A stretch of 64,000 bases of DNA from Escherichia coli (lineage in GTDB: Bacteria; Pseudomonadota; Gammaproteobacteria; Enterobacterales; Enterobacteriaceae), in assembly GCF_050320075.1 (NCBI RefSeq), contig NZ_CP190018.1; one strand, given 5' to 3'. Below, piece by piece: positions 49,091-60,829 of the stretch. The notes below the pieces were generated by a model that did no database searches, was not told where the DNA came from, and worked only from the letters and a program-made list of their open reading frames with translations. Positions within the stretch are counted from its first letter, which is position 1. Every line of letters starts with the position of its first letter. A program made the translations under genes and the position numbers.

Positions 49091-51424
49091 TCAGGCTGTT
49101 GCAGGGTCGTCACATTTTGGCAGCCAGTCGCCGTAGCTTTCCTCTTTCAGCGTCAGGTTGGTCTGTATCCCCTGTTTGGTATGGCGCTTCTCGTAATTCA
49201 GTCCGTATTCCTTCAGCATCACCGGCAGCCCCAGCCCGAACATTTTCAGACTGAGTACGTTCCGGTAGCCGTTTGCCTCCATGTAGGCCAGATAGGCGTG
49301 ATAGAGGTATTTACGGTAATTGCGCGGGATGATGCTGGCGTTCCCCATATACATGCCGCTGGTCTGCGGCAGGGTTTCCAGATAGCCGATAAAATCAAAC
49401 GTCGGGTCGGCATCCCGTTTGATGTTCAGCGCCTCGTCTGAGTTCTGCTGGGACTGAAGCAGTGACCGGGCGAGCATCGGGTCGCTGAACTTCTGCATCA
49501 GGTGACGCACGATGACCGCCAGCTCGCGGGTGATTTTGTCCTTAAGCTGCGGGTCGCGCTCCTGCGGGGCTATCTGTTCCGGGAAGTGAATAATCACCCG
49601 CCGGCGTGACACGCCGCCGCTGCGGTCGGTGAAGCGCATCGGGTTATTGTTCACGGCCAGAATTACCGCCGGGATATGCGTGGAGTATGCATCCCGGTAT
49701 TTCGGGTCAACGGACACCGCATCGCCGCCGGTGATGGCCTTGAGTCCGGCACCGTCGCCGCTCCATTTTTCCTGGTCCGGCAGGCGTATCAGTGAGAAGC
49801 CAGTTAACGCGGCACGTTCACGCGGGGATTCCAGCGTCTCGATGGTGGCCGACGTGGCGTTATCCTCACCGGCCAGCAGGGTGGCTATTTCGGCCATGAT
49901 ACTTTTGCCGCTGCCGCCGGGACCGGTCACCTCCAGAAAGAGCTGCCAGTCGTAGCGGTTTGCCAGCACCATAAACAGTGCGGCCAGAATCACGTCGCGT
50001 TTTTCCGCACGACCACCGGCGGCACGGTCAAGCCAGCGCCAGAACGCGGGGGCGTGGGTTTCCAGCGTTTCCCCTTCCACCGGCGGGGTGAAATCCACAT
50101 CGCACAGGGTGCGCATCCAGTGTGACGGACTGTGCGGGTGGAACGTGCCGCTCTGCGTGTCGAGCACGCCGTTACGAAAGCCAATCAGGCGGCGGGAGGG
50201 GGCTTCCTGCTGCGGAATAATCAGCTTCAGGGTGTCCACCACGGAGGCCACCTTCCCGGAGGAGAACGGCGCGCGCAGACGCTGAAACAGCCCGGCCACA
50301 TCCCGGGCAAAGTCCTGTGGTGGCAGCACCTTCCAGACACCATTTTCATAACGGGACAGAAGCTGGCCGTTGGCATCAACCGCGAGCGCCTCGCCGTAAT
50401 GCTCATAGATACGCATGGCCTTTTCGCTGGTACTCATGGCGGAAAACTCCGCTTCGCTCATGGTGTCGAACGGGCTTTCAGCCGGTGGCCGGATGGCATC
50501 ATAAATGGCCTTACGGGTGGCTTCCCCGCCGTACTGCGTGAAGGCATCATTCCAGTCACCGAAGACCGGCGGCAGGGCAACAACACCTTCACACGCATCT
50601 GCGGCTGCGGCGGCTTTTTTCTGGCCGTCACCGCTGAGGTCACGGTCAGCAGCAAGGACAATCTGACAGGCCGGATGCTTCTGCCGGGCAAGGCTGGCCA
50701 GAGAAAGGAGATTCACGGAAGAAAGCGCCACCATCACCGTTTCACCGGTCAGGTGATGCACGGTAAGTGCGGTCGCGTATCCCTCCGCTATCCACAGACG
50801 TTTTCCGGCCTGATTCTGTCCTTCAAGGGTGTGACAGGTGCCCCTGACCTGTCCGCCTTTCAGGGTGCGCTTACGGCCGTCAGCACTGATTAACTGAAGG
50901 TTAACCAGTTCGCCGCTGTCGTCATACAGTGGCACCACAAGGTCACCGGCGCGCCAGCTCACGCCACCGGCTCTGTGTGTGCCGGTCAGCATCCGGCATT
51001 CCCGGCCGGGAAAGCCCTTGCGGGTCAGGTAGGCGTTACCGGTTCCGGGACGGGTTTTCGCCATCAGGGTTTGTGCCAGTGCGGCGGCGTTCTTCCGGGC
51101 AGCGTCTGTTTCAGCACCGGCGGCGGTCGTCACTGCCGGGTCAGCCGGGGGCAGGCTGCCGGTCACGGCAGCCACCTTTGCGGCCGCGTCGGACGGGGAA
51201 ACACCAAACACCTTTTCAACCAGTTTCAGGCCGTCACCGGCACCACACTGATTGCAGTACCAGGTGCCGCGCCCCTCCCTGTCATCAAAACGGAAGCGGT
51301 CACTCCCGCCACAGACCGGACAGGGCTGATGACGGTTCTTCAGCACCTGAATCCCCAGCGCCGGGAGAATACGCGGCCAGTGGCCGAGCGCATGGCTGAC
51401 GGTGGCGGTTACGTTCATTTTCAT
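49091..51424 (-). CDS. P4 alpha-like primase/helicase (replication protein)
   Basis: 777-aa ORF; N-terminal zinc motif CPVCGG..YCNQCG, toprim-like region, central Walker A GPGGSGKS; strong SD AAGGAG upstream. Confidence 0.9.
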   Translation of the reverse strand: MKMNVTATVSHALGHWPRILPALGIQVLKNRHQPCPVCGGSDRFRFDDREGRGTWYCNQCGAGDGLKLVEKVFGVSPSDAAAKVAAVTGSLPPADPAVTTAAGAETDAARKNAAALAQTLMAKTRPGTGNAYLTRKGFPGRECRMLTGTHRAGGVSWRAGDLVVPLYDDSGELVNLQLISADGRKRTLKGGQVRGTCHTLEGQNQAGKRLWIAEGYATALTVHHLTGETVMVALSSVNLLSLASLARQKHPACQIVLAADRDLSGDGQKKAAAAADACEGVVALPPVFGDWNDAFTQYGGEATRKAIYDAIRPPAESPFDTMSEAEFSAMSTSEKAMRIYEHYGEALAVDANGQLLSRYENGVWKVLPPQDFARDVAGLFQRLRAPFSSGKVASVVDTLKLIIPQQEAPSRRLIGFRNGVLDTQSGTFHPHSPSHWMRTLCDVDFTPPVEGETLETHAPAFWRWLDRAAGGRAEKRDVILAALFMVLANRYDWQLFLEVTGPGGSGKSIMAEIATLLAGEDNATSATIETLESPRERAALTGFSLIRLPDQEKWSGDGAGLKAITGGDAVSVDPKYRDAYSTHIPAVILAVNNNPMRFTDRSGGVSRRRVIIHFPEQIAPQERDPQLKDKITRELAVIVRHLMQKFSDPMLARSLLQSQQNSDEALNIKRDADPTFDFIGYLETLPQTSGMYMGNASIIPRNYRKYLYHAYLAYMEANGYRNVLSLKMFGLGLPVMLKEYGLNYEKRHTKQGIQTNLTLKEESYGDWLPKCDDPATA

Positions 51425-52630: not shown

Positions 52631-53222
52631 GGGACACCTCCACCACCGGCAGACGGGCAGCAAGGGAGAGCACATAGTCACGGACAAGGGAACGGCGGGC
52701 ACTGCGTTCATCACCGGCGACGGTGCGAAGCATACAGATACGGGGATGACGGTCTGCGCGACGGACAGCCGCAAACACAAAGACAAATTCAGGGTGTGAG
52801 GGGGTAAGGGTTGTAGCCATGATGGCAGCCTCCTGTGAATAGCAAATAACGCTATCGCCGGAGTTCTCACGCTCGATGGCGATAGCCCAGACGGGGGTGA
52901 GAATACCGGCTTCACAGGATACCGGCCAGCCCGGAGGCTGCCCCGCCTGAGCTACCATTGACTCTGCGGCATAATGAGCGGACGCGGGCAGGATGCACGG
53001 AATGCCATCTGCACGACTGACCACACACCACACCATAATCTGGCGCTCTGTGGCATTGATTGCGACACAAAAAAAGACGCGTGGCGCGTCATATGTCGCC
53101 TGTGAATTGCTCGGGTTCTCACGCCCGGCTGCCGATTTTGCGGCAGCGGAAAAACTATATCCGCAAATGCCGGAAAAAGGCAAGCCAGAAAAAGGGACTT
53201 TTTGCAGAGCGGGCATCATCAT
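52623..53222 (-). CDS. 199-aa hypothetical protein (P4 orf199-like)
   Basis: ATGATGATG at 53222-53214 overlaps the vis stop (ATGA coupling); track ORF 52623..53267 extends into vis in another frame. Confidence 0.5.
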
Positions 53223-53485: not shown

Positions 53486-53587
53486 CGGGCTACCTCGTTA
53501 ATGTCCATACAGCACCGGATAAGTCCGTCCGGCTTCGGGTAGCGCTTTATTTTGTGAATATTTTCAGCAGACGCAACAGGGGGGATT

Positions 53588-53966: not shown

Positions 53967-54038
53967 TCTGCAATGCGTCGTGTTGTTGTCCGGTGTACGT
54001 CACAATTTTCTTAACCTGAAGTGACGAGGAGCCGGAAA

Positions 54039-54773
54039 ATGTCTGACAACACCATCCCTGAATATCTGCAACCCGCGCTGGCACAACTGGAAAAGGCCAG
54101 AGCCGCCCATCTTGAGAACGCCCGCCTGATGGATGAGACCGTCACGGCCATTGAACGGGCAGAACAGGAAAAAAATGCGCTGGCGCAGGCCGACGGAAAC
54201 GACGCTGACGACTGGCGCACGGCCTTTCGTGCAGCCGGTGGTGTCCTGAGCGACGAGCTGAAACAGCGCCACATTGAGCGCGTGGCACGCCGGGAGCTGG
54301 TACAGGAATATGACAATCTGGCCGTGGTGCTGAATTTTGAACGTGAACGCCTGAAAGGGGCGTGTGACAGCACGGCCACCGCCTACCGGAAGGCACATCA
54401 TCACCTGCTGAGTCTGTATGCAGAGCATGAGCTGGAACACGCCCTGAATGAAACCTGTGAGGCGCTTGTCCGGGCAATGCATCTGAGCATCCAGGTACAG
54501 GAAAATCCGCTCGCCAACACCACCGGCCATCAGGGCTACGTCGCGCCGGAAAAGGCTGTCATGCAGCAGGTGAAATCATCGCTGGAGCAGAAAATTAAAC
54601 AGATGCAAATCAGCCTCACCGGCGAGCCGGTTCTCCGGCTGACCGGACTGTCAGCGGCAACACTCCCGCACATGGATTATGAGGTGGCAGGCACACCGGC
54701 ACAGCGCAAGGTGTGGCAGGACAAAATAGACCAGCAGGGAGCAGAGCTTAAGGCCAGAGGACTGCTGTCATGA
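54039..54773 (+). CDS. sid: P4 Sid-like capsid size-determination (external scaffold) protein, 244 aa
   Basis: Start MSDNTIPEYLQPALAQLEK.. inside track ORF 54021..54773; coiled-coil-rich; stop overlaps the delta start (ATGA). Confidence 0.8.
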   Translation: MSDNTIPEYLQPALAQLEKARAAHLENARLMDETVTAIERAEQEKNALAQADGNDADDWRTAFRAAGGVLSDELKQRHIERVARRELVQEYDNLAVVLNFERERLKGACDSTATAYRKAHHHLLSLYAEHELEHALNETCEALVRAMHLSIQVQENPLANTTGHQGYVAPEKAVMQQVKSSLEQKIKQMQISLTGEPVLRLTGLSAATLPHMDYEVAGTPAQRKVWQDKIDQQGAELKARGLLS

Positions 54774-55270
54774 TTTACTGCCCGTCGTGTGGACATGTTG
54801 CTCACACCCGTCGCGCACATTTCATGGACGATGGCACCAAGATAATGATTGCACAGTGCCGGAATATTTATTGCTCTGCGACATTTGAAGCGAGTGAAAG
54901 CTTTTTCTCTGACAGTAAAGATTCAGGAATGGAATACATTTCAGGCAAACAGAGATACCGCGATTCACTGACGTCGGCCTCCGGCAGTATGAAACGCCCG
55001 AAAAGAATGCTTGTTACCGGATATTGTTGTCGGAGATGTAAAGGCCTTGCGCTGTCAAGAACATCGCGGCGTCTGTCTCAGGAAGTCACCGAGCGTTTTT
55101 ATGTGTGCACGGATCCGGGCTGTGGTCTGGTGTTTAAAACGCTTCAGACCATCACCCGCTTCATTGTCCGCCCGGTCACGCCGGACGAACTGGCAGAAAA
55201 CCTGCATGAAAAACAGGAACTGCCGCCAGTACGGTTAAAAACACAATCATATTCGCTGCGTCTGGAATGA
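54770..55270 (+). CDS. P4 Delta-like late-gene activator (tandem Ogr-type zinc fingers), 166 aa
   Basis: Two Cys4 motifs (CPSCGH..CRNIYC and CCRRCKG..CTDPGCG). Confidence 0.85.
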   Translation: MIYCPSCGHVAHTRRAHFMDDGTKIMIAQCRNIYCSATFEASESFFSDSKDSGMEYISGKQRYRDSLTSASGSMKRPKRMLVTGYCCRRCKGLALSRTSRRLSQEVTERFYVCTDPGCGLVFKTLQTITRFIVRPVTPDELAENLHEKQELPPVRLKTQSYSLRLE

Positions 55271-55343
55271 GGGCTGCCGGTTAACACCGGCCGTCGCCAC
55301 ACACCGTATTTTTATTCTTCAGCATGATGAGAAAGAGATAACG

Positions 55344-55916
55344 ATGGAAAGCACAGCCTTACAGCAGGCCTTTGACACCTGTCAGAATAACAAAGCAGCA
55401 TGGCTGCAACGCAAAAATGAGCTGACTGCGGCCGAACAGGAATATCTGCGGCTTCTGTCAGGAGAAGGCAGAAACGTCAGTCACCTGGACGAATTACGCA
55501 ATATTATCGAAGTCAGAAAATGGCAGGTGAATCAGGCCGCCGGTCGTTATATTCGTTCGCATGAAGCCGTTCAGCACATCAGCATCCGCGACCGGCTGAA
55601 TGATTTTATGCAGCAGCACGGCACAGTACTGGCGGCCGCACTGGCACCGGAGCTGATGGGCTACAGTGAGCTGACGGCCATTGCCCGAAACTGTGCCATA
55701 CAGCGTGCCACAGATGCCCTGCGTGAAGCCCTTCTGTCCTGGCTTGCGAAGGGTGAAAAAATTAATTATTCCGTACAGGATAGCGACATTTTAACGACCA
55801 TCGGATTCAGGCCTGACGCGGCTTCGGTGGATGACAGCCGTGAAAAATTCACCCCTGCGCAGAACATGATTTTTTCGCGCAAAAGTGCGCAACTGGCATC
55901 ACATCAGTCTGTGTAA
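55344..55916 (+). CDS. psu: P4 Psu-like polarity suppression / capsid decoration protein, 190 aa
   Basis: 190-aa ORF following sid and delta; lengths 244/166/190 match my recollection of P4. Confidence 0.8.
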   Translation: MESTALQQAFDTCQNNKAAWLQRKNELTAAEQEYLRLLSGEGRNVSHLDELRNIIEVRKWQVNQAAGRYIRSHEAVQHISIRDRLNDFMQQHGTVLAAALAPELMGYSELTAIARNCAIQRATDALREALLSWLAKGEKINYSVQDSDILTTIGFRPDAASVDDSREKFTPAQNMIFSRKSAQLASHQSV

Positions 55917-56080: not shown

Positions 56081-56099
56081 GGCGAGGCGGGGAAAGCAC
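56081..56099. other. cos site (P2/P4-type 19-nt cohesive end sequence)
   Basis: GGCGAGGCGGGGAAAGCAC inside a GC-rich palindromic context (AAACCGCCCCGCAAAGCGGGCGGGCGAGGCGGGG..); matches the P2/P4 cohesive end as I recall it. Confidence 0.7.
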
Positions 56100-56303
56100 C
56101 GCGCGCTAAACCTGATGAATAAGGAATATTTTAAAAACATTTGTGGATATGAATATTTGGGTTGTAAATGAGTGTTTTTATCTGTTTTTATGTGCTGTGA
56201 AGCAATGTTTGAGTCGATATTTTTATAAAGCTCAATAAAAATTACATTATCATTGATAAGAATGGTTGTCGGATTAACACGTTTTTAAGCTATTTATATA
56301 TAA

Positions 56304-56332
56304 TTAAACCTCGGCAAGGTTGCTGAGGTTTA
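56304..56332 (-). terminator. Putative terminator downstream of the cargo gene
   Basis: Inverted repeat TAAACCTCGGCA..TGCTGAGGTTTA just past the stop at 56350, followed by AT-rich sequence on the minus strand. Confidence 0.45.
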
Positions 56333-56349
56333 ATCGATTGGTTAATTAT

Positions 56350-59076
56350 TTAGTTGATTAGGTGTGACTCAGTTGCAGAGTGACCTTTTTTTGTCCTAAC
56401 AAACTTGATAGCAAGTGTTTTTCCTCTAATGTAATTAGACCAGTTATATTTTTCTTCACCAAGGCAACTGTCCCTATGAATTAATATTTCTTTTCCATCA
56501 GAATCTCTGGCAAAAACAAATCCTTTTCCTAATGTAAGATCTGAATATATTTCTGCTATAGAATATCCATTATTTTTCCATGTGATTTGTTCGAATTCGG
56601 CAATTGTTTTAGATGAGCTAAAAGCACTCCATTTGGGGGAGGTGAATGGGTTGTTTGGTATTTTTGTTGCTCTCATTGTTGAAATGATATTAACTACTTC
56701 TTTACTTGATATCTTAAAATCTTTAGAGAACTTTGTAATGTCGGCAAGATTGCTTTCAGCAAAATCAATTACTTTTATAATGAATTGTTGAGATAGTTTA
56801 TCAATGTTGTTTTTGATCGTGTCACAAAAAAGATTTAAAGATTTAATAGCTTCGTCAGAAAGTCGATCGCTGATGTTTTCTTTTTCAAATATAAATTCCA
56901 ATATGTCGATAACTTCAGATATGTTTTTTTCTACAGACTCAGGGTTAATGTCGAAGTTATTTTCACAAGAACGCTTTAATGCGGCGACTCTAAAGTAAGC
57001 TTGCTCTTGAGGTGAATGTGAATCTTTCCATTTTTCAGTGTATTCAAGAATGTCTGGGTATTCTTTACCATAAAGATGAACACCTAAATACTCTCGCATT
57101 ATTATAGAAGACAGTACTTCGCCTGAATGCTCAACTCTGTCGAATCCAGAATCAATCAATTCCTGAGATACTTTTTGAGCCTCTATAAAATCACCAATAT
57201 CTTTATAGATATACATCAGAGTTAAGTTGTTTAGTGGATTTTCAGACTCTATGCCTATTGCTGACTTTATACAAGAAATAGCACCTAAATTATCACCCTG
57301 CTTATGTAGTATTCTGGCATATGTTCGCATAAATAGAGGATTTTTTTGATATATTTGAGCGAGTGTTTTAAAATCCTCATAAATAACATTTAATTTATCT
57401 TTGTTAACGCTTTTGTAGCCTAAAATTTTATTTGCTCTGTTAACAGCTATTTGCAAGGAGTCAGGGCTATTATTAGGGATGAATCGATAATCAAACCGAT
57501 CTATTTCTTTATCTTGTTGGAATTTTTGTAAGTGCAATATTTCAGTTCGTTGTTTTCTTGCTTTTTCAGCAATAATGTTTCTGACGGTGTTATTTCTTGG
57601 TGATGTGATTAATAGTTCTTTGATTGATTCACTTAAAGAAAACTCTTCTTCTCCCGTATTAGATGTTTTCCGGGATACTAAAGATGTGTTCAATATTTCT
57701 TTAATCGCTTTTGCTATTGAGTCGGGATCTGAATCTAAGAAATGAGTTAAAAATGATCTTGATGATGCTCCGGTGACAAACAAGCATTCAAGAATAGATA
57801 TTGCATCGTTACTTAAAACATCTAATAGATTATTAAATGAAAATGCAGCGATATCTTTTTTGGATTTTTCTATTGAGTCAGGTAAAGCCATTCCATTATA
57901 AATGGAATCTATTGTAAGCCTTATTGCTAAGGGGTTAAAATGAGTCACTTCAGTAATTCTCGTGAGTTCTTCTGGGGTTAAGTTTATTATCCCTCGTTTA
58001 TCTGAATATGATTTGGCTAGATGGAAAGCCACACCAGATTGCAATTCCTTAAGTGAAATTGGGTAAGCTCCGTCAACCATTATTCGACTAGTGACTACCA
58101 CTTTAAAATTCGAAGGAAGAGTATACTGGAAACGAATGAACTCATCAGGACCATCTCTTAATAAAGTTTCGAGATTATCGATACATAGGAGAGTGCTTTC
58201 TATATCTTGGTCGTTTATAATTTCTGAATATAGATCATCATAGTTTTCTATCTCTTCATCAGGATTAAAAAACTCCACTATTTCTTTTTTTATTTCAGAA
58301 ATGGTGTCAATGTTTTTTAACTCAGAAATACCATCAGCAGTGAGATGATGTTTCTTTAATGTTAAATAGCAAATGTTTTTGAATTTCTCATTGGCTTTTG
58401 GTGAGATGCTCAATTCTTTTAAGAAATCTAAAATTAAAGCGGTTTTTCCTACGCCTCCAGGAGCTACAACCGCAATGAATGGAGTTCGATCGTTATTTAT
58501 TGCTGATAATAACTCTTTCTTTTCACCTTTACGGCCTATAAGGCTGGTAATGTCGTGATCAAATTTATCAGGCAGGTTGTTATTAATTTCCCAGCTAATA
58601 GTAGAAAACCATTCTTCTGGAGGTGCTTTTAATTGACCAGTAGATGCGGAATAATAAGCATCCTTCACACTTTTTAAACCAAGTACTTCTATATATGGAT
58701 GTGAGGCTATAGCTGCAGCGCAATGCCAGTAATGCTCATGGAATGGTCGGGTTGGATGACTAATTTGATTTCTTATAAAAAATAAATCAACAGCTGTACA
58801 GAACTCTTTCAGTTCTGACAGTTTATCATAGTCAGATGTACCCTTAGCTAATTGCAGGGCATAATTGAAAATTTCACCGATATAACTTGCTTGGATAAGA
58901 GTTTGCGTATTGAAAACGGGACCTCTCCCACGCTCCAGTTCTAGTTTAGAACGAGGTTCGAAATGTTCGCTTAACCTACTTTTACCTCCTGCATCCTCAC
59001 TAACAACATACGCCGCCAATGCTTTTTCTAAGGCATAAACTATCATACTAGTTTTCGTATCAAGATATTCAGACAT
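56350..59076 (-). CDS. STAND (NB-ARC-type) NTPase with N-terminal effector-like domain, helical repeat region and C-terminal beta domain; candidate antiphage defence protein
   Basis: 908-aa AT-rich ORF with SD AAGGA; LIGRKGEKKEL..IAVVAPGGVGKTALIL (Walker A), LLCIDNLE (Walker B), KVVVTSR (RNBS-B-like), HFNPLAIRL (GLPL-like); N-terminal IRNQISH (Rx4H); C-terminal GKGFVFARDSDGKEILIH. Confidence 0.8.
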   Translation of the reverse strand: MSEYLDTKTSMIVYALEKALAAYVVSEDAGGKSRLSEHFEPRSKLELERGRGPVFNTQTLIQASYIGEIFNYALQLAKGTSDYDKLSELKEFCTAVDLFFIRNQISHPTRPFHEHYWHCAAAIASHPYIEVLGLKSVKDAYYSASTGQLKAPPEEWFSTISWEINNNLPDKFDHDITSLIGRKGEKKELLSAINNDRTPFIAVVAPGGVGKTALILDFLKELSISPKANEKFKNICYLTLKKHHLTADGISELKNIDTISEIKKEIVEFFNPDEEIENYDDLYSEIINDQDIESTLLCIDNLETLLRDGPDEFIRFQYTLPSNFKVVVTSRIMVDGAYPISLKELQSGVAFHLAKSYSDKRGIINLTPEELTRITEVTHFNPLAIRLTIDSIYNGMALPDSIEKSKKDIAAFSFNNLLDVLSNDAISILECLFVTGASSRSFLTHFLDSDPDSIAKAIKEILNTSLVSRKTSNTGEEEFSLSESIKELLITSPRNNTVRNIIAEKARKQRTEILHLQKFQQDKEIDRFDYRFIPNNSPDSLQIAVNRANKILGYKSVNKDKLNVIYEDFKTLAQIYQKNPLFMRTYARILHKQGDNLGAISCIKSAIGIESENPLNNLTLMYIYKDIGDFIEAQKVSQELIDSGFDRVEHSGEVLSSIIMREYLGVHLYGKEYPDILEYTEKWKDSHSPQEQAYFRVAALKRSCENNFDINPESVEKNISEVIDILEFIFEKENISDRLSDEAIKSLNLFCDTIKNNIDKLSQQFIIKVIDFAESNLADITKFSKDFKISSKEVVNIISTMRATKIPNNPFTSPKWSAFSSSKTIAEFEQITWKNNGYSIAEIYSDLTLGKGFVFARDSDGKEILIHRDSCLGEEKYNWSNYIRGKTLAIKFVRTKKGHSATESHLIN

Positions 59077-59094
59077 ATATGATCCTTGTTCAAA

Positions 59095-60282
59095 TTAAAG
59101 AGTGGTTTGCAATCCCCACCAATTCATTAACTCTATACGTTGTTCTAAATAGGTACTTCTATTGTAAGCTTTTCGAACCTCATTCCTCTCGGAATGCGCC
59201 AATGCTGCTTCAATAACATCAGGATTAAATTCTGCTTCGTTCATTGCCGTACTGGCAATTGATCTTAGTCCATGGGCCACTAACTTACCGCCATAACCTA
59301 TTCTCTTCAAGGCAGCGTTTGCCGTCTGACTGTTCATCGGCTGTTTTGGATCGTTTCTGCTCGGGAAAATATGTTCACGGTGACCACTGATAGGCTTCAT
59401 TACTTCCAAAATACCTAAAGCCTGAGGTGACAAAGGGACAATGTGTTCACGTTTAGCCTTCATTCGTTCGGCGGGAATCGTCCAGAGTTTGGCCTCGAGA
59501 TCGATCTCGACCCACCGAGCACCAGAAGCCTCAGAAGGGCGCACTAGGGTCAGGAGCTGCCACTCGATAAGACAGCGAGTCGGAACAGACAGATTCGACA
59601 TTACCAGAGAACGCATCAGCTTAGGTAATTCTTCGGGTCGTAGCGTGGGCATATTCTGCTTTTTGGGTTTCTCAAATGCCATTCCAACACCTGATGCTGG
59701 ATTTGCATCAATTAGACCAGTGTTTACGGCATAAATCATTATCTCGTTAATGCGCTGTACCAGACGACGTACCGTCTCTAGCGCGCCACGTGCTTTGATT
59801 GGTTCGAGGGTTTCAACAAGTGTTCGGGCTTTGATTTGCTGAACAGGGAGCTCACCGATGGCAGGTAATACATCTTTTTCCAGGGAACGCCAAATGTCTT
59901 TCGCGTAATCAGGGGTAACGCTTTTGCTTTTTATCTGGAACCAGTTGGTCGCAACAGTCGAAAAAATACTGTCTAGAGCTATCTGTTGTTGTTCTTCGAT
60001 AAATTCAGCTTGAACTTGTGGGTCTATACCATTAGCCAACAAAGCAAGGTAATCCGCTCTTAACCGTCGAGCATCAGCAAGTGAAAGGGCGGGGAAAGCA
60101 CCAAGCCCCATCATTGTCCGCTGTTTTGTTGCTGGACGTTGATAACGGAAACGCCACAACTTCTTACCGTTCGTTTTAACGAGCAGAAAAAGGCCATCGC
60201 CATCATGTAACGTTAGATCCTTTTCTAACGCTTTAGCGCGCAGAACTTCGGTGTTGGTCAGGGGGCGTGTTGTTCTTGCCAC
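59095..60282 (-). CDS. P4-family tyrosine integrase
   Basis: 395-aa ORF, GTG start with AAGGAG SD; N-terminal arm-binding-like LTNTEVLRAKALEKDLTLHDGDGLFLLVKTNGKKLWRFRY; C-terminal HGLRS..R..Y catalytic region; adjacent to the ssrA 3' end. Confidence 0.9.
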   Translation of the reverse strand: MARTTRPLTNTEVLRAKALEKDLTLHDGDGLFLLVKTNGKKLWRFRYQRPATKQRTMMGLGAFPALSLADARRLRADYLALLANGIDPQVQAEFIEEQQQIALDSIFSTVATNWFQIKSKSVTPDYAKDIWRSLEKDVLPAIGELPVQQIKARTLVETLEPIKARGALETVRRLVQRINEIMIYAVNTGLIDANPASGVGMAFEKPKKQNMPTLRPEELPKLMRSLVMSNLSVPTRCLIEWQLLTLVRPSEASGARWVEIDLEAKLWTIPAERMKAKREHIVPLSPQALGILEVMKPISGHREHIFPSRNDPKQPMNSQTANAALKRIGYGGKLVAHGLRSIASTAMNEAEFNPDVIEAALAHSERNEVRKAYNRSTYLEQRIELMNWWGLQTTL

Positions 60283-60466: not shown

Positions 60467-60829
60467 TGGTGGAGCTGGCGGGAGTTGAACCCGCGTCCGA
60501 AATTCCTACGTCCTCGGTACTACATGCTTAGTCAGTCTTTACATTCGCTTGCCAGCTGCGGACGGACACGCCACTAACAAACTAGCCTGATTAAGTTTTA
60601 ACGCTTCAACCCCAGGCAGGGCTTCCACGCGATCTCTTTTGGGTTTGACCTCTCTTGATCCCCGTCCTAAGAGCGGAGGCTAGGGAGAGAGGGCTCTAAG
60701 CAGGTTATTAAGCTGCTAAAGCGTAGTTTTCGTCGTTTGCGACTATTTTTTGCGGCTTTTTACGAGGCCAACCGCCCCTCGGCATGCACCTTGGGTTTCG
60801 CAAATCCCGTCGAATCCAGAATCAGCCCC
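60467..60829 (-). ncRNA. ssrA: tmRNA (SsrA), 363 nt
   Basis: Minus strand reads GGGGCTGATTCTGGATTCGACGGGATTTGCGAAACCC..; tag ORF GCAAACGACGAAAACTACGCTTTAGCAGCTTAA (ANDENYALAA*); 3' end ..GCCAGCTCCACCA. Confidence 0.97.

Follow-up and report, generated by a model that had tools for sequence, protein, structure and literature searches.

The satellite and its cargo gene

The window analysed here, a 64,000-nucleotide stretch of Escherichia coli DNA (NCBI RefSeq contig NZ_CP190018.1), contains a P4-like satellite integrated at ssrA, and the gene under study is the cargo of that satellite. It lies on the minus strand at 56350..59076, starts with ATG and encodes a protein of 908 amino acids (aa). 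The open reading frame (ORF), its homologues and an AlphaFold2 model indicate four parts in the order HEPN domain, NB-ARC-type STAND NTPase, TPR region and cold-shock domain (CSD). We describe the protein as a probable single-gene defence system with a predicted ribonuclease (RNase) effector. A first-pass annotation had proposed a 908-aa minus-strand gene between psu/cos and int, and this gene is present in that interval.

On the left, the cargo slot follows psu, the polarity suppression protein gene (55344..55916, plus strand; ORF and RefSeq annotation), which is the final backbone gene ahead of cos. The boundary itself is the string GGCGAGGCGGGGAAAGCAC (56081..56099, plus strand), read from the sequence, which we take to be the cos core of P2 and P4. 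The same string also precedes the cargo in the P4-hotspot clones of Rousset et al. (PMC9122126). On the right, the slot is bounded by int, encoding a P4-type integrase (59095..60282, minus strand; ORF and RefSeq annotation of an identical locus), which lies directly upstream of the 908-aa gene. The int stop codon TAA occupies 59095-59097 and the ATG of the gene 59074-59076, leaving a gap of 18 nt (59077-59094). Within this gap, the Shine-Dalgarno sequence AAGGA (59083..59087, minus strand, read from the sequence) is located 6 nt 5' of the ATG, in agreement with the strong ribosome-binding site and the same-strand 18-bp spacing that had been reported for the gene.

The remaining satellite genes identified by ORF and annotation include primase alpha (49091-51424, minus strand) and the sid/delta/psu block (54021-55916, plus strand). 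The immunity region (52875-53160, minus strand) contains Rfam matches to the C4 antisense RNA, the C4 a1/b1 target and isrK, as expected of a P4-like element. The transfer-messenger RNA gene (60467-60829, minus strand) adjoins the satellite. In 500-nt windows, the GC content of the 908-aa gene is 0.31-0.39, compared with about 0.5-0.63 in the backbone between 49000 and 55750, which shows a single dip near 53500, and 0.42-0.48 in int. The AT-richness that had been judged by eye is borne out by these values.

Domain architecture and conservation

Conservation was counted in a family alignment of 36 sequences and, as a wider set, in 116 full-length representatives clustered at 50% identity. The AlphaFold2 model, built from 36 homologues, reached a mean predicted local distance difference test (pLDDT) score of 84; for a separate model restricted to the two end domains, the score was 88.6.

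The N-terminal part (residues about 1-160; 58597..59076, minus strand) is an all-helical HEPN-like domain, the predicted RNase effector. It is modelled as a helical bundle of the HEPN fold, and its longest aligned HEPN match is AbiF, over 125 residues. The family alignment places the HEPN catalytic motif at R102-N-Q-I-S-H107 (Rx4H; 58756..58773, minus strand). All 36 aligned sequences have R102, N103 and H107; in the wider set, R102 and H107 are kept in 116/116 and N103 in 114/116. The invariance of the R102/H107 dyad argues that the predicted RNase is active here.

The central module (residues about 178-495; 57592..58545, minus strand) is a STAND NTPase of the NB-ARC/AP-ATPase type, with a nucleotide-binding domain (NBD), a helical domain (HD1) and a winged-helix domain (WHD). 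Four NTPase motifs had been read from the translation in the first-pass annotation, and all of them lie at the residues given there and are invariant in the family. Walker A, APGGVGKTAL, spans residues 205-214, with the P-loop A205-PGGVGKT-212 at 58441..58464 (minus strand); G207, G208, G210, K211 and T212 are invariant, K211 in 116/116. Walker B, L296-LCIDNLE-303 (58168..58191, minus strand), retains D300 and N301 in all 116 representatives and E303 in 114. The RNBS-B segment KVVVTSR (residues 325-331) carries the sensor-1 arginine, R331 (116/116), and the GLPL-type motif NPLAIRL (residues 381-387) is invariant in 36/36, with P382 in 115/116. D300, N301, E303, T329, S330 and R331 are likewise invariant in the 36 sequences. 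In residues 440-500, where the MHD site was sought in the 36-sequence alignment without structural superposition, no invariant His was found; the invariant positions there are T464, L466, L481, S484, L489 and P493.

Against Pfam, the window protein matches AAA_16 (4e-4) and nSTAND1 (1.2e-3) and does not reach the NB-ARC model, which 22 of the 36 family members match at E<=1e-3 (best 4.6e-7). Structure prediction, which had been suggested as a check for an NTPase fold, yields a predicted NBD-HD1-WHD fold resembling solved NB-ARC proteins. The closest solved folds to the modelled NTPase are the plant resistosomes (ZAR1), CED-4 and Apaf-1, and solved bacterial Avs structures are absent from the best 50-60 PDB matches.

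The segment joining the HEPN domain to the NTPase (residues 150-182; window positions about 58531-58629) ranks with the best-conserved parts of the protein. The invariant residues in the 36 sequences are P152, P153, W156, W162, N166, L168, P169, F172, H174, T177, L179, G181 and R182, and the segment has low pLDDT in the end-domain model. This linker might act as a latch between effector and switch, coupling the two.

Residues about 496-835 (56572..57591, minus strand) form a helical, TPR-like region, the presumed sensor, as indicated by profile comparison with the PDB and by Pfam. The family profile matches TPR proteins of the PDB at profile positions about 565-700, and several members have Pfam TPR matches. 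Sequence searches of the PDB returned only TPR proteins, whether the query was the protein alone or the profile of the family.

The C-terminal domain (residues 836-908; 56353..56571, minus strand) is assigned as a cold-shock domain of the OB fold. In the model it is a five-stranded OB barrel resembling solved CSDs. Its RNP1 and RNP2 segments can be aligned with E. coli CspA, and the equivalents of CspA F18, F20 and H33 are retained as F853, F855 and H867. Aromatic positions are maintained across the wider set, with F/Y at 853 in 106/116, F/Y at 855 in 109/116, F/Y/H at 865 in 106/116 and W/F at 879 in 106/116. At position 865, where F/Y is found in 100/116, the window protein has L. Alignment with hhalign against six approximate CSD sequences gave E 0.0045 and a probability of 7.7%.

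The mean pairwise identity is 0.50 in the HEPN domain, 0.55 in the NBD, 0.54 in the WHD and 0.37 in the CSD, and it is lowest in the TPR region, at 0.31. Low identity in the TPR region and CSD is as expected for a sensor, and an effector-switch-sensor design fits this pattern.

Protein family and genomic distribution

Full-length homologues, about 900-920 aa long, number more than 300. Identity is about 60% in Pantoea and Yersinia and 33-36% in Klebsiella, Vibrio, Shewanella, Acinetobacter, Alcanivorax and many Bacteroidota. An exhaustive profile search recovered 569 clusters (50% identity) at E<=1e-30 and 2267 at E<=1e-10. Most of the best 150 cluster representatives are full-length, collinear and alike in their N-terminal HEPN domain; truncation or a divergent N-terminus affects a minority. 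The family is large, clearly delimited and spread over Gammaproteobacteria and Bacteroidota, and Firmicutes contain relatives built on the same plan.

One such relative is encoded on a Planococcus plasmid (L012:5554-8178). Its hhalign comparison with the family profile kept the HEPN motifs in register and gave E 1.5e-23 at a probability of 99.6%. It matches Pfam NB-ARC (7e-13) and CSD (3.9e-4) and, weakly, HEPN_Swt1 (0.12). In PADLOC, its N-terminal HEPN region matches PDC-M34B (1.2e-5) and its tail matches CSD_V (3.3e-5), which indicates that related end domains are already present in catalogues of candidate defence genes, in other architectures. This distant relative supports the predicted HEPN, NB-ARC and CSD assignments. 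Three longer relatives, P0205, P0218 and P0253 (1137-1163 aa), were also observed, with an extra C-terminal extension of about 250 aa beyond the cold-shock domain; in P0218, the sole one of them scanned, the extension has no Pfam match.

The gene is present in 7 of 5426 complete E. coli genomes, a rare and patchy distribution in which all copies are at least 99.8% identical, and at the two E. coli loci inspected it lies in the same satellite slot. The psu/cos region was found in 2248 genomes. Three sampled satellites with psu/cos 94-98% identical carry in this slot either a four-gene ABC-three-component system or a pair of AAA and DUF4435 genes (PARIS type), in either orientation. The presence of other systems in the slot of near-identical satellites verifies on data that this is a variable defence slot, as the first-pass annotation had stated for the psu/cos-int interval and in agreement with Rousset et al. 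(PMC9122126).

Outside E. coli, the Pantoea homologue (60% identity) occupies the same satellite slot and adjoins BREX genes. The Vibrio fluvialis homologue (33% identical; L010:9162-14990) is located between gpA and the ogr/capsid/portal genes of a P2-like element, a position that corresponds to the P2 hotspot of Rousset et al. (PMC9122126); one family thus occurs in both P4-type and P2-type hotspots. The Klebsiella homologue adjoins McrBC and a type I restriction-modification (RM) system and has an integrase upstream, and an Acinetobacter homologue lies near a SinI RM system. Homologues are also the main cargo of 8-30 kb plasmids of A. baumannii. In the case of pABLAC1 (8006 bp, non-mobilisable), the homologue makes up one third of the plasmid; beyond it, pABLAC1 carries only repM, a RelE/ParE pair and small ORFs. 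The homologues share no conserved partner gene, so the system consists of a single gene.

Relation to described systems

Experiments have validated the psu-int slot as a hotspot and have shown that TIR-NLR, a TIR-STAND-TPR protein encoded there, is protective (Rousset et al. 2022, PMC9122126). That system, Rst_TIR-NLR, resembles the window protein in its psu/cos-int location and in combining an effector with a STAND module homologous to NB-ARC and a TPR region (PMC9122126). However, it and the other STAND proteins of the P4 hotspot have TIR, SIR2 or Mrr effectors, whereas the window protein has a HEPN domain and a CSD tail. Table S1A of the same study (Rousset et al. 2022, PMC9122126) already contains this very protein, WP_089620504, as 'hypothetical' among the single-gene cargoes of the P4 hotspot; the tested constructs in the part of Table S2 consulted do not include it (PMC9122126). 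The architecture has also been reported. Anantharaman et al. 2013 (PMC3710099) described a Swt1-like HEPN fused to 'STAND-ATPase, TPR, S1' and predicted that proteins with an N-terminal HEPN, a STAND module and a C-terminal cold-shock OB-fold are active defensive RNases. The domain order and predicted function are the same as in the window protein, but that description is computational only and gives no family name, distribution, satellite link or mechanism. The earlier label of the gene as 'undescribed' is therefore too strong. MED222_16016 was considered as a family member, and a search of cluster names and literature did not confirm it.

Avs/AVAST and further NLR-like proteins of bacteria have been characterised in detail. 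The Avs/AVAST family (Avs1-5; Gao 2020 and 2022) is close in plan to the window protein: one large polypeptide has an enzymatic effector at its N-terminus, a STAND NTPase in the centre and a helical-repeat sensor at its C-terminus, and it is carried in defence hotspots. By analogy, the window protein would likewise act by ligand-induced oligomerisation and cell death. It differs in its effector, a HEPN RNase rather than a DNase, SIR2 or TIR domain, and in the extra C-terminal CSD. Its NTPase is NB-ARC/AP-ATPase-like (ZAR1, Apaf-1, CED-4), and no effector swapping is seen among the listed representatives. At the profile level, no AVAST model of PADLOC v2 matched; only PDC-S27 (E 2.6e-4, residues 178-221) and mad8 (E 0.012) were returned, both limited to the P-loop, and the same was observed in four homologues. 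PDC-S27, mad8, Orc1/Cdc6 and the phrog 'ATP-dependent protease' (PADLOC v2, NCBIfam, PHROGs), all weak matches to the P-loop or TPR, were rejected as evidence of membership, each match covering at most about 130 residues, mostly around the P-loop.

A recent survey by Lee et al. 2026 (bioRxiv 10.64898/2026.01.04.697583) distinguished 589 NTPase clades, 684 sensor clusters and 198 defence-associated STAND clades, and named Avs7-24. Its main text names no HEPN-CSD family and contains no matching description (bioRxiv 10.64898/2026.01.04.697583). A literature search for a named HEPN-STAND system likewise found none. A comparison with defence catalogues, which had been recommended for this protein, thus has two sides: neither PADLOC v2 nor NCBIfam has a defence model that matches it outside the P-loop, but it is already catalogued in the literature.

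SAMD9/SAMD9L and bacterial Avs9 (PMC12680541) share a layout of RNA-targeting nuclease, STAND, TPR and C-terminal OB-fold, with translation shutdown as output. Their effector, however, is AlbA_2/Schlafen-like and they measure about 1,400-1,600 aa, whereas the window protein has a HEPN domain and 908 aa, without SIR2 or SAM. Membership in this group was rejected, as the effector is HEPN-like and not AlbA_2, SIR2 is lacking, and no SAMD9- or Avs5-like chain appears among the top PDB matches. The resemblance concerns layout only, and kinship of the NTPases beyond the STAND class is not claimed.

The known HEPN defence enzymes PrrC, RloC, ApeA and DARNA are infection-activated tRNA anticodon nucleases (bioRxiv 10.64898/2026.02.22.705581). 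DARNA/PD-T7-3, ApeA, PrrC/RloC and AbiF have in common with the scheme proposed for the window protein a HEPN Rx4-6H RNase that is silent until infection, with abortive infection in known members. These stand-alone HEPN RNases are regulated by single-stranded DNA (ssDNA) and SSB, RM partners, an ABC ATPase or an RNA antitoxin, and they have no STAND, TPR or CSD. Identity with DARNA/PD-T7-3 was rejected, since that protein has 456 aa, composed of HEPN and a Pds5-like helical domain, with no STAND module (bioRxiv 10.64898/2026.02.22.705581). The 'HEPN-TPR' construct (pFR83) tested by Rousset et al. (PMC9122126) was also rejected as an identity; its sequence is unrelated, starts with MFQISAGVFF and has no P-loop architecture.

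Proposed function and alternative explanations

We favour, with a probability of about 0.6, a one-protein NLR/Avs-like abortive-infection system carried as satellite cargo, in which the infected cell would be killed or arrested by the predicted RNase domain. The domain identities, the invariance of the catalytic and NTP-binding residues, the variability of the sensor region and the position in proven defence hotspots are observed. From these we infer antiphage activity and propose a trigger, an oligomerisation step, an RNase activity and its substrate as follows. At rest, the NB-ARC-type STAND NTPase would keep the protein as an inactive monomer. A phage-derived ligand would be sensed by the variable C-terminal TPR region, probably aided by the terminal CSD, and nucleotide-dependent oligomerisation of the STAND module would follow. 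Oligomerisation would bring together the N-terminal HEPN domains, which in HEPN RNases must dimerise to form the Rx4-6H active site. The activated RNase may then cut host and/or phage RNA (tRNA, rRNA or mRNA), so that translation stops and the infection is aborted; this would shield the lysogen population and hence the satellite. The CSD could serve in substrate recruitment, as an autoinhibitory lid or as a sensor of phage ssDNA or single-stranded RNA (ssRNA).

The first-pass annotation had described a single-gene Avs-like STAND cargo. The modelled fold, the conservation of the family and the genomic context support that description, which had overlooked the HEPN and cold-shock domains.

Several results weigh against the abortive-infection interpretation. 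The window protein has no Pfam HEPN match at E<=10, and among 26 family members only one matches HEPN_MAE_28990, weakly (0.024); neither the window protein nor the 26 members match the Pfam CSD model (PF00313). The HEPN and CSD assignments therefore rest on predicted structure, motif conservation and the distant Planococcus relative. The failure of PADLOC v2 and NCBIfam defence models to match beyond the P-loop belongs here as well. The literature yielded no experimental test of any family member, and a tblastn search of 50,697 phage records found no homologue. Around the Chitinophaga and Shewanella homologues, no defence genes are recognisable. Effector swapping, a described feature of Avs7 (Lee et al. 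2026, bioRxiv 10.64898/2026.01.04.697583), was not seen among the 150 best representatives of this family. Finally, hotspot location alone is no proof of function, as 7/18 cloned P4-encoded systems defended against the main phage panel (PMC9122126).

The rival explanation closest to the favoured one concerns the trigger, which would be a nucleic acid and not a phage protein: autoinhibition would be released when the CSD binds ssDNA or ssRNA of the phage, or an intermediate of replication or transcription. The RNP1/RNP2-like aromatics at 853, 855, 865 and 879 are kept across the representatives, and the CSD stays at the extreme C-terminus in the aligned members and in the distant Firmicute relative. 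The layout would be analogous to the STAND-TPR-OB part of SAMD9/SAMD9L, where the full order is RNase effector, STAND, TPR and OB (PMC12680541), and ssDNA is able to activate the HEPN defence RNase DARNA (bioRxiv 10.64898/2026.02.22.705581). However, a CSD could equally recruit the RNA substrate of the HEPN domain or serve as a structural lid, and the window protein has L at 865 in place of the usual F/Y. Furthermore, wherever Lee et al. identify the trigger of an Avs family, it is a protein recognised by helical repeats (bioRxiv 10.64898/2026.01.04.697583), and the top PDB matches contain no SAMD9- or Avs5-like structure. We regard a nucleic-acid trigger as rather unlikely. A stricter form, in which the CSD is the true sensor and an NB-ARC-type NLR directly detects single-stranded nucleic acid of the phage and responds with its HEPN RNase, appears slightly less likely still. 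If true, the family would mirror in prokaryotes the RNase-STAND-TPR-OB logic of human SAMD9/SAMD9L and would provide the first Avs-like receptor that senses nucleic acid.

Two further alternatives dispense with a primarily antiphage role. The protein might be a selfish or inter-element weapon, acting as a post-segregational or addiction-type toxin, or in competitor exclusion or manipulation of a P2-like helper. Its homologues are always on mobile DNA (satellites, P2-like elements and plasmids), one being the main cargo of the 8-kb A. baumannii plasmid beside a RelE/ParE pair, and hotspot systems shape P2-P4 and inter-phage competition (Rousset et al., PMC9122126). The lack of a conserved cognate antitoxin or partner gene, the 900-aa sensor-switch architecture, which is atypical of addiction toxins, and the RM and McrBC systems among the chromosomal neighbours make this explanation improbable. 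A housekeeping or regulatory STAND protein (MalT/AfsR-like), or a factor of RNA metabolism, present in the satellite by chance, is very improbable. It would agree with some JGI annotations that name homologues 'MarR family regulator' and with the common occurrence of CSDs in RNA chaperones. It fits poorly with the sporadic presence in E. coli genomes (7/5426), the foreign composition (GC about 0.33), a cargo position interchanged with PARIS and ABC-three-component systems, the invariant HEPN catalytic dyad and the lack of a DNA-binding output domain besides the STAND winged helix.

Significance of the family

The protein represents a new, uncharacterised family within an established kind, that of Avs/NLR-like abortive infection, with a predicted RNase effector and a possible nucleic-acid-binding tail. 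Validation would extend the bacterial NLR/Avs repertoire by an NB-ARC-type family armed with an RNase, and the CSD at the tip of the sensor would offer a way to ask whether a STAND immune receptor reads nucleic acids. The CSD would also allow the coupling of HEPN dimerisation to STAND oligomerisation to be addressed. The family is further unusual in that no swapped effector was seen among the listed representatives. The modelled NTPase appears nearer to plant resistosomes, CED-4 and Apaf-1 than to solved bacterial Avs, which, on validation, may bear on the ancestry of NB-ARC immunity. The general picture is unchanged, as the literature already contains both STAND defence genes of the P4 hotspot and HEPN-STAND-OB architectures.

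Non-coding sequence flanking the gene

A promoter scan around the 908-aa gene gave a site count not above that of shuffled sequence. The gene had been said to fill the slot between cos and int. It does lie between them, but an AT-rich non-coding tail of about 250 nt (56100..56349; GC about 0.33-0.37) separates its stop codon from cos. The longest ORF starting in this tail has at most 32 aa, and no Rfam match was found there. Given its low GC, like that of the gene, the tail presumably came with the cargo. A stable hairpin on the minus strand (56302..56335) begins 14 nt past the stop codon, with a folding energy of -16.6 kcal/mol and a z-score of -7.6 against shuffled sequences. The absence of a U-tract sets it apart from canonical intrinsic terminators, and a role in marking or stabilising the transcript's 3' end is possible.

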